DNA of 26,750 bases from a virus (taxonomy: Duplodnaviria; Heunggongvirae; Uroviricota; Caudoviricetes): IMG/VR virus record IMGVR_UViG_2531839662_000023. One strand, 5' to 3'. A program made the position numbers and the translations under genes. Of this stretch, positions 22,069 through 22,929 are shown piece by piece; positions within the stretch are counted from its first letter, which is position 1, and the number at the start of each line of letters is the position of its first letter. The notes below the pieces were generated by a model. The model did not search any database. It was given only the letters and a program-made list of their open reading frames with translations, and was not told the origin of the DNA.

Positions 22069-22929
22069 ATGGAAGTCAACAAAAAGCAGCTGGCTGACAT
22101 TTTCGGTGCGAGTATCCGTACCATTCAGAACTGGCAGGAACAGGGAATGCCCGTTCTGCGAGGCGGTGGCAAGGGCAATGAGGTGCTTTATGACTCTGCC
22201 GCCGTCATAAAATGGTATGCCGAAAGGGATGCTGAAATTGAGAACGAAAAGCTGCGCCGGGAGGTTGAAGAACTGCGGCAAGCCAGCGAGGCAGATCTCC
22301 AGCCAGGAACTATTGAGTACGAACGCCATCGACTTACGCGTGCGCAGGCCGACGCACAGGAGCTGAAGAATGCCAGAGACTCCGCTGAAGTGGTGGAAAC
22401 CGCATTCTGTACTTTCGTGTTGTCGCGGATCGCAGGTGAAATTGCCAGTATTCTCGACGGGATCCCCCTGTCGGTGCAGCGGCGTTTTCCGGAACTGGAA
22501 AACCGACATGTTGATTTCCTGAAACGGGATATCATCAAAGCCATGAACAAAGCAGCCGCGCTGGATGAACTGATGCCTGATGGCGCTGTGATTCATATTG
22601 TTCCCAGAGTCGCCGGGGCCAAGTCTGGTGGTGTATTCCAGATTGTCCTGGGAGCAGCCGCCATTGCCGGATCATTCTTTACCGCCGGAGCCACCCTTGC
22701 AGCATGGGGGGCAGCCATTGGGGCCGGTGGTATGACCGGCATCCTGTTTTCTCTCGGTGCCAGTATGGTGCTCGGTGGTGTGGCGCAGATGCTGGCACCG
22801 AAAGCCAGAACTCCCCGTACACAGACAACGGATAACGGCAAACAGAACACCTATTTCTCCTCACTGGATAACATGGTTGGATGGATTAAAAAGCGTGCTG
22901 CTGAACAGTACGCCAGTGCTGGACAGTGA
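22069..22929 (+). pseudogene. nohD: Chimeric ORF: terminase small subunit Nu1 (aa 1 to about 170) fused to tail assembly protein I C-terminus
   Basis: N-terminus matches lambda Nu1 (MEVNKKQLADIFGASIRTIQNWQEQGMPVL...AALDEL). From about 22575 it continues as the lambda gpI C-terminus (PDGAVIHIVPRVAGAKSGGVFQIVLGAAAIAG...SSLDNMV). Ends out of frame inside J. Confidence 0.75.

Follow-up and report, generated by a model that had tools for sequence, protein, structure and literature searches.

IMG/VR record IMGVR_UViG_2531839662_000023 is a stretch of 26,750 nucleotides (nt), referred to here as the window, in which two genes of a lambda-type phage are fused. The open reading frame (ORF) listing shows a single frame on the plus strand at 22069-22929, which starts with ATG and encodes 286 amino acids (aa). 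The window was compared with the lambda reference (NC_001416) by BLAST plus alignment, and the joints were read base by base. The product, identical to the protein P0001, consists of Nu1 residues 1-168, a methionine, residues 83-183 of the tail protein gpI, and 16 residues of out-of-frame J. The Nu1-derived part occupies 22069-22574 (+) and matches lambda nt 191-696, which is codons 1-168 plus 2 nt, at ~99% identity. The gpI-derived part, at 22575-22879 (+), corresponds to lambda 15018-15322 (I codons 83-183) at 97.4% identity. Past the Nu1 residues ...NKAAALDEL, the chimera reads MPDGAVIHIVPRVAGAKSGG, which is gpI, and the peptide across the junction reads ...AALDELMPDGAV.... The BLAST segments are colinear with lambda: window 21880-22577 equals lambda 1-699 (99.0%) and window 22574-22879 equals lambda 15017-15322. 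From the translation, the J-derived tail at 22880-22929 (+) contributes 16 codons before a TGA stop at 22927-22929. Gene J continues as an internal fragment at 22878-25081 (+; lambda 15620-17823, about codons 39-773, 94.9%), which lacks both its own start and the receptor-binding C-terminus. It is read in its own frame within an ORF at 22757-25093 and is cut again at window 25081. An antisense ORF of 208 codons (21970-22596, minus strand) overlaps the Nu1 part and is most likely a by-product of coding-strand composition.

The chimera was produced by two illegitimate deletions with 1-2 nt of microhomology. At junction 1 (CTGAT/GCC, 22570-22577 on the plus strand, joint at 22574/22575), lambda 696 meets 15018 and a single T is shared, Nu1 matching through T696 and I from T15017. 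In lambda coordinates, this deletion measures 14,321 bp. It removed the Nu1 3' end, genes A through K, and I codons 1-81, and it split codon 82, leaving ATG (Met169) as the hybrid codon. The start positions of Nu1 (191) and I (14773) in lambda mean that a 14,321-bp deletion keeps I in the Nu1 frame, an outcome expected by chance one time in three. At junction 2 (22878-22879, +, shared TG), lambda 15322 is joined to 15622. The 299 bp lost here (lambda 15323-15621) contain I codons 184-223, the I-J spacer, and J codons 1-39. Because lambda reads I and J in one frame, the 299-bp deletion throws J out of frame, and translation stops 16 codons later. In terms of codons, the first deletion (14,321 bp) connected Nu1 codon 168/169 with I codon 82/83 and by chance preserved the frame, and the second (299 bp) connected I codon 183/184 with J codon 39/40 and did not.

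A preliminary description of this DNA, made from its letters, had reported the single frame and the Nu1 portion through ...AALDEL, both of which are confirmed by the ORF listing and the lambda alignment. It had also proposed one deletion running from Nu1 to the middle of I. A single deletion does connect the Nu1 3' end to I codon 82, but the second, frame-shifting deletion of 299 bp was missed, and the proposed size of ~18 kb has to be corrected to the 14,321 bp given by the alignment of the junction. Likewise, the C-terminal part that it assigned to the gpI C-terminus does contain 101 aa of gpI (83-183), but the final 16 residues are out-of-frame J and gpI 184-223 is gone.

That the chimera is an artifact of assembly or sequencing is extremely improbable, and nothing was found that speaks for it. 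The same 2.2 kb is present in one piece, at 99.9-100% identity, in seven independently assembled genomes among 5,426 complete Escherichia coli genomes, so the joints are not an assembly artifact, and the same junctions are present in further draft assemblies. All seven genomes are from swine and include UMNF18, several enterotoxigenic E. coli (ETEC) strains, and an O141:H4 strain. In the protein collection, the identical 286-aa protein forms a cluster of seven members.

The window spans the complete DLP12 cryptic prophage, with intD at one end and appY at the other. This assignment is based on the RefSeq annotation of the colinear UMNF18 region and on comparison with K-12 W3110. Between intD (1-1164) and the end of appY (26750), the window and UMNF18 are colinear at 99.8-99.99% identity, with one insertion sequence (IS) as the only exception: UMNF18 carries an IS1203 copy between quuD and the porin gene, and the window lacks that copy. 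The location and gene order are those of DLP12, with the integrase gene intD, on the argU side of the prophage, at one end, appY-ompT-envY beyond the other, and the ybc/ylc genes, emrE, and rusA present. The order runs from intD through quuD, the porin gene, essD-rrrD-rzpD, bor, ybcV, ybcW, ylcI, cos, and nu1 to the tfa remnant, appY, and ompT, and window 19343-21879 matches lambda 45967-48502. The Prokaryotic Genome Annotation Pipeline (PGAP), applied to UMNF18, treats all three pieces of the fusion region as pseudogenes marked "incomplete"; it names them nohD, hypothetical protein (for the gpI-derived piece), and "host specificity protein J, incomplete".

Residues 1-164 of the chimera match the full Pfam profile PF07471 (Phage_Nu1; profile 1-164/164, E = 3e-100, 332.9 bits against a cut-off of 30), and residues 1-168 are those of lambda gpNu1 with one difference. 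In a sequence search of the PDB, residues 1-98 were identical to the Nu1 chains of 6HN7 and residues 1-68 to 1J9I, bearing out the earlier statement that the N-terminal cosB-binding domain is retained. The winged-helix DNA-binding domain (1-68), which recognizes cosB in Nu1, is complete, and the self-association region is present as well. The last 13 residues of Nu1 (169-181) are lost, and no gene A, which encodes the large subunit, overlaps its end, all of A having been deleted. The segment of Nu1 that binds gpA lies within its C-terminal ~40 residues.

Residues 170-270 correspond to gpI 83-183 of PDB 8IYK with one substitution, as found by the PDB sequence search. Compared with lambda gpI (PDB 8IYK, 8XCG), the chimera carries helices H1 and H2 and the plug (159-175), but it lacks the N-terminal domain (1-82) and the C-terminal strands 184-223. 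The Pfam family for gpI, PF06805, found no match in the chimera, Phage_Nu1 being the sole Pfam match; PF06805, which is seen on full-length gpI-like proteins, is assumed to model the missing N-terminal domain (1-82). The gpI part was rightly described as rich in Gly and Ala and hydrophobic (A 18%, G 16%), and a hydropathy scan found two hydrophobic stretches, at residues 188-211 and 217-243, with means above 1.6 over 19 residues. These stretches correspond to gpI helices H1 and H2, and the plug segment (I 159-175) is also kept (tested region ~101-175). In the lambda tail studied by cryo-electron microscopy, H1/H2 and the plug lie inside the tail tip; the helices are predicted to be transmembrane, and a possible membrane insertion was suggested (PMC11101478). 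Strands 184-223 thread through gpJ and anchor gpI in it (PMC11101478). Of the genes for its tail-tip partners, J has lost both ends, and none of L, K, M, and H is present. The gpI part cannot act in tail assembly because gpJ, gpL, gpK, and gpH are absent or truncated.

Taken together, these data suggest, with a probability of about 0.85, that the ORF is a decaying, non-functional fusion pseudogene of the cryptic prophage DLP12 in porcine, ETEC-type E. coli. No sign of constraint was seen: a sister assembly, GCA_053639315.1, shares 99.96% identity along 9.75 kb, yet its G6 run at 22701-22706 has lost 1 nt, which shortens the product to 221 aa. Other E. coli strains carry different Nu1-to-tail deletions at the same locus, leading to L, I, J, lom, stf, or tfa, as ongoing decay would predict. 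If the ORF is transcribed at all, the Q-dependent late/lysis transcript, reading through the intact cos, would be the likely source. The product would join the cosB-binding and self-association regions of Nu1 to the hydrophobic helices and plug of gpI. Its binding partner, the terminase large subunit, and its docking partner, gpJ, would both be missing.

Several observations weigh against a decaying pseudogene. The cos site directly upstream is intact (21868-21891, +; the lambda 48502/1 joint falls at 21879/21880 and reads ...ggttacg/gggcggcgacct), and so is cosB with its Nu1-binding repeats between cos and the Nu1 start. Only 1 of 168 residues of the Nu1 part differs from lambda Nu1, and junction 1 is in frame. 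Four promoter-like hexamers were found upstream of the ORF where 1.6 were expected, these being consensus matches only. The frameshift in GCA_053639315.1 falls within a homopolymer and may reflect a sequencing error. Finally, a related in-frame fusion exists in another lineage, Nu1(1-169)-gpI(75-223), which is 318 aa long (P0002, at L216:6001-6957) and has a complete gpI C-terminus. It is followed by complete J, lom, and stf genes, and its joint (lambda 14995) lies 22-24 nt from the joint in the window. A "succession" of junctions within one recent lineage was considered and rejected, since L216, which has the nearest junction, is 2.3% divergent from the window.

Some expression is therefore conceivable. 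A rival reading is that the chimera is expressed and active, which we regard as unlikely. Such a protein might act as a dominant-negative small terminase subunit that binds the cosB of incoming or resident lambda-type phages and cannot recruit gpA, the last 13 residues having been replaced. Alternatively, the gpI helices might tether it to the membrane, where it could cause superinfection exclusion or be toxic. The complete and nearly lambda-identical DNA-binding domain, the intact cos and cosB, and the match of the two hydrophobic stretches to gpI H1/H2, which are predicted to be transmembrane (PMC11101478), are consistent with such roles. Moreover, ~4,030 of the 5,426 E. coli genomes retain a lambda-type Nu1 frame, which is in many cases the only packaging gene left, and the nu1 of K-12 DLP12 works once recombined into lambda (PMC3945230). 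However, the fusion partners of Nu1 vary from strain to strain (Lom, Stf, J, U, portal, capsid, and others) and are joined in or out of frame, with no hint of selection for a gpI tail. The exact fusion is limited to one swine-associated lineage, it is frameshifted in a near-identical genome, and its pieces are pseudogenes according to PGAP. The upstream promoter matches, too, are consensus hits only. The pseudogene reading is therefore retained.

The Nu1-side breakpoint of junction 1 is not random. It falls within lambda 694-700 (CTGATA^CC, Nu1 codon 169), a deletion hot spot that is sharply confined and one-sided. The site reads 5'-GAACTGATA^CCGGGG, with its right flank reading TA/CCGGGGTTGCTGAG, and window 22570-22577 corresponds to lambda 692-699. 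About 60 mapped right-hand ends join this hot spot to lambda 751-22390, and a few further partners have no lambda match. The deletions leave cos and Nu1 codons 1-168/170 in place and lead downstream, to sites between gene A and tfa. In strain LWY6, lambda 695 is joined to 13502 (gene L), in AJ1 lambda 696/697 is joined to 14893 (I), and in the window lambda 695/696 is joined to 15017 (I). At the Qin site of 17MR471, lambda 694-697 is joined to 15685 (J). E. coli C joins lambda 695-699 to J 16135-16142 with TACC shared, and B-lineage strains have the same match pattern. Four other variants break elsewhere, at 583, 647, 1018, and 1614.

A protein search with the chimera returned 1,166 matches, and the point of divergence from Nu1 was read in the best 120 cluster representatives. 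In these, divergence came after I169 in 69 clusters, after L168 in 5, and after 170 in 11, and only ~25 diverged anywhere in 171-181, full-length ones included. Breaks before about residue 160 are under-represented by the cluster ranking, which does not affect those in 170-181. By tblastn, the fusion tails map to ~45 lambda positions between 751 and 22390, all on the plus strand and all downstream, in genes A, B, C, E, FI, Z/U, V, K, I, J, lom, stf, and tfa. A further 13 junction loci in metagenomes and 11 in viral contigs came from scans for GCGCTGGATGAACTGATA with any base but C behind it; excluding three repeats of the same joint left 8 of the viral ones. The metagenome and viral joints lead to A, W, E, Z, J, tail-fiber genes, or the appY side. 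A scan of one-genome-per-species contigs gave 44 loci, mostly from unrelated taxa as judged by record titles.

The hot spot is also visible in copy counts, which were obtained with 100-nt lambda probes against the 5,426 complete genomes. The probe for lambda 498-597 found 5970 places, 598-697 found 5959, 698-797 found 5273, and 798-897 found 5209. Thus, ~690 Nu1 copies end in the step that holds the hot spot, compared to 11 and 64 in the adjacent 100-nt steps; the ~690 are copies and not independent events. The joints run in one direction. A stricter pattern found no mirror-image joints, in which the right side would be kept with foreign DNA on its left, in the viral collection, versus 8 running downstream. 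A first scan for right-side-kept joints returned natural alleles only, for example GAAATGATA. The nu1 alleles with GAAAT(G/A)ATA likewise gave no mirror-image joints, a null whose underlying allele totals are not known.

A further origin considered for the Nu1/I joint of the window is recombination, either between two different lambdoid prophages or of a prophage with an infecting phage, that placed a foreign I-J segment beside the Nu1 of DLP12. Identity to lambda is uneven (~99% in cos-Nu1, 97.4% in I, 94.9% in J), and segment exchange is known among lambdoid prophages (PMC3945230). However, uneven divergence is normal in mosaic lambdoid genomes, and the order and orientation of the pieces are those of a single lambda-type late region. 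Only 1 nt is shared at the joint, so it did not arise by homologous exchange, and all mapped Nu1-fusion partners lie downstream on the same strand, as deletions predict. We consider an imported segment to be very improbable and retain the origin by two deletions.

Shared ends were also seen elsewhere in the late region. Two deletions (L010:3363 and L011:2444) share a J end at lambda 15670 (cact/GAGGGGAATACC), a second "fixed end" on the right side, and have different left ends, lambda 1614 (A) and 583 (Nu1), respectively. The DLP12 of K-12 W3110 (L264:2883-2886) joins A at lambda 1018 to tfa at 22119, and FORC064 (L009:2926-2928) joins the same A position, 1018, to I at 15077. Both of these joints continue with TATTCCAG, and a second deletion, between 8-bp repeats, may have turned a FORC064-like structure into that of K-12. 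Shared left ends can therefore also come from secondary events, a route that does not obviously explain ~60 partners at one Nu1 site.

The partner sites at the hot-spot joints were analyzed with lambda as a proxy for the deleted DNA, which is only an approximation. Of 27 distinct events that retain Nu1 through 697, 20 have a deleted partner side ending in TA, compared to a background of 3% (P ~ 2e-25), and base -4 of the partner is G in 20 of the 27. With all 652 TA sites of the region as the baseline, the used TA sites show an excess of G at -4 (P = 0.002), C at -6 (P = 0.012), C or G at +3 (20/20, P = 9e-5), and G at +4 (P = 1.6e-4). The signal on the right side held up in a control for codon phase, with G at +4 in 10 of 11 out-of-phase sites versus 26% expected. 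The resulting partner motif is G-N-T-A/W-N-S-G, or (C)-N-G-N-T-A/W-N-S-G in its extended form. The Nu1 site is C-T-G-A-T-A/C-C-G-G, so both partners are alike on both sides of the joint. This two-sided likeness exceeds the needs of simple broken-end annealing. Microhomology at the junctions is 0-6 nt, and the right-hand ends are clustered, with 13 gaps of 30 bp or less versus 5 expected (P ~ 0.001). These statistics rest on small numbers, in-frame fusions are over-represented by the protein clustering, and many copies are inherited rather than independent.

Tentatively, at somewhat less than even odds, the hot spot reflects a specific, directional breakage-and-joining process that is undescribed in the literature searched. 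Such a process would start from a fixed end, or cleave at a fixed point, near lambda 697-699, keep the Nu1 side, and join it downstream at G-N-T-A sites. Candidate agents acting on the prophage DNA would be a sequence-specific enzyme or a fixed 3' end, and could include a packaging-linked nicking or cleaving activity, a topoisomerase, or a further recombinase. The alternative is that ordinary microhomology-mediated deletion, together with residual effects of sampling and ancestry, gives rise to the pattern.

Several known systems were considered as the source of the fixed end. Adjacent or nested deletions mediated by an IS were rejected, as no IS abuts the joint in ~30 junctions read at the DNA level. 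One junction has an ISAs1-type transposase gene ~0.4 kb downstream, and in Sp4 of O157 Sakai, ISEc8 disrupts nu1 mid-gene, away from the hot spot. RecBCD acting at Chi was rejected since the nearest Chi-like octamer, GCTGGATG (lambda 682-689), has two mismatches. Cutting at Chi is expected 4-6 nt downstream, which for this octamer does not match the mode at 697. A hairpin or cruciform was rejected because there is no significant inverted repeat at the site and the folding z-score is 0.11.

Transposon ends and site-specific recombinases did not fit either. Lambda 700-737, directly right of the hot spot and deleted in the window, is the best lambda match to the gamma-delta inverted repeat (23/38), a likeness that is probably a coincidence. 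A pseudo-end of the Tn3/gamma-delta type was rejected since 21-23 matches equal the chance maximum for other repeats and its orientation predicts that the wrong side is kept. A quasi-site for Hin/Gin/Pin and a gamma-delta res half-site (CTGATA) were rejected because the predicted crossovers at 700-702 differ from the mode at 696-697; this comparison was made by eye. The DLP12-encoded RusA cuts 5' of CC, which would give ATA^CC at the Nu1 site. It was rejected because the partner sites lack CC at the joint position.

Gyrase was not supported. The published Topo-Seq lists for K-12 W3110 contain no site at nohD 580,559-580,563 among the sites listed. The nearest listed oxolinic-acid gyrase site is at 580,520; a quinolone bias of the method and a possible offset of the reference coordinates apply to this comparison. 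A staggered gyrase cut of the form T^GATA^C would suit the 4 nt, G-N-T-A, that end at the joint. Gyrase-mediated illegitimate recombination in E. coli and lambda has reportedly been described by Ikeda and co-workers. Hot spots of short-homology-dependent illegitimate recombination are known in E. coli and lambda. The Nu1 joints resemble the known illegitimate-recombination hot spots in their short microhomology, their one recurrent end, and the absence of any IS left behind, but they differ in that the partner sites show a sequence preference on both sides of the joint. No description of a deletion hot spot at the nu1 3' end was found in the literature searched, with most papers in subscription journals outside its scope, and we do not claim priority.

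The chimera can be compared with its relatives in K-12. It lies at the same genomic place as nohD of K-12, downstream of ylcI and cos in DLP12. K-12 NohD differs in that all 181 aa of Nu1 are present, with 309 nt of A and, after these, tfa remnants downstream. Cluster P0104 (189 aa), which we take to be NohA of the K-12 prophage Qin, breaks at codon 176, whereas the chimera breaks at 168/169. Among DLP12 variants, the module order is the same; the swine lineage keeps pieces of I and J, and K-12 lacks them.

Beyond the fusion, other parts of the prophage carry deletions and insertions as well. Between the truncated J and the tfa remnant lie 205 bp without a lambda match (25082-25286). The remnant itself, the 3' part of a tail-fiber assembly gene (25287-25440, +), matches lambda 22381-22534 at 83% identity and precedes appY. 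At 4140-4142, bet (lambda 32221) runs into gam (lambda 32926) across an internal deletion, and both are partial pseudogenes according to PGAP in the colinear UMNF18 record. An IS3-family element at 1936-3251 adjoins exo and is 99.5% identical to the IS1203 of UMNF18. IS2 at ~10581-11854 splits a ybcK-type serine recombinase gene into 10000-10569 and 11900-12862. The porin gene between quuD and the lysis cassette (16963-18120, minus strand) is an uninterrupted ORF of 385 codons. Its K-12 counterpart, nmpC, is disrupted by IS5.

The chimera is a lineage-specific case of the well-known gene-fusion scars found in DLP12 and other cryptic lambdoid prophages, and it was already present, unremarked, in public annotation. 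By itself it is of little weight, as a scar of DLP12 decay that is useful as a marker of a swine ETEC lineage. It also cautions that a long in-frame ORF in a cryptic prophage may have arisen by accident. The hot spot would matter more. If it does reflect a specific activity, this activity would help to "ground" lambda-type prophages by removing the large terminase subunit together with the morphogenesis genes. It would also explain why Nu1 homologs (the noh genes) frequently survive as the last packaging gene beside an intact cos, with the surviving cos sites still usable by helper phages. If one nucleotide-sharp site drives much of the loss of terminase and structural genes, prophage domestication would be partly a specific molecular process and not random deletion.

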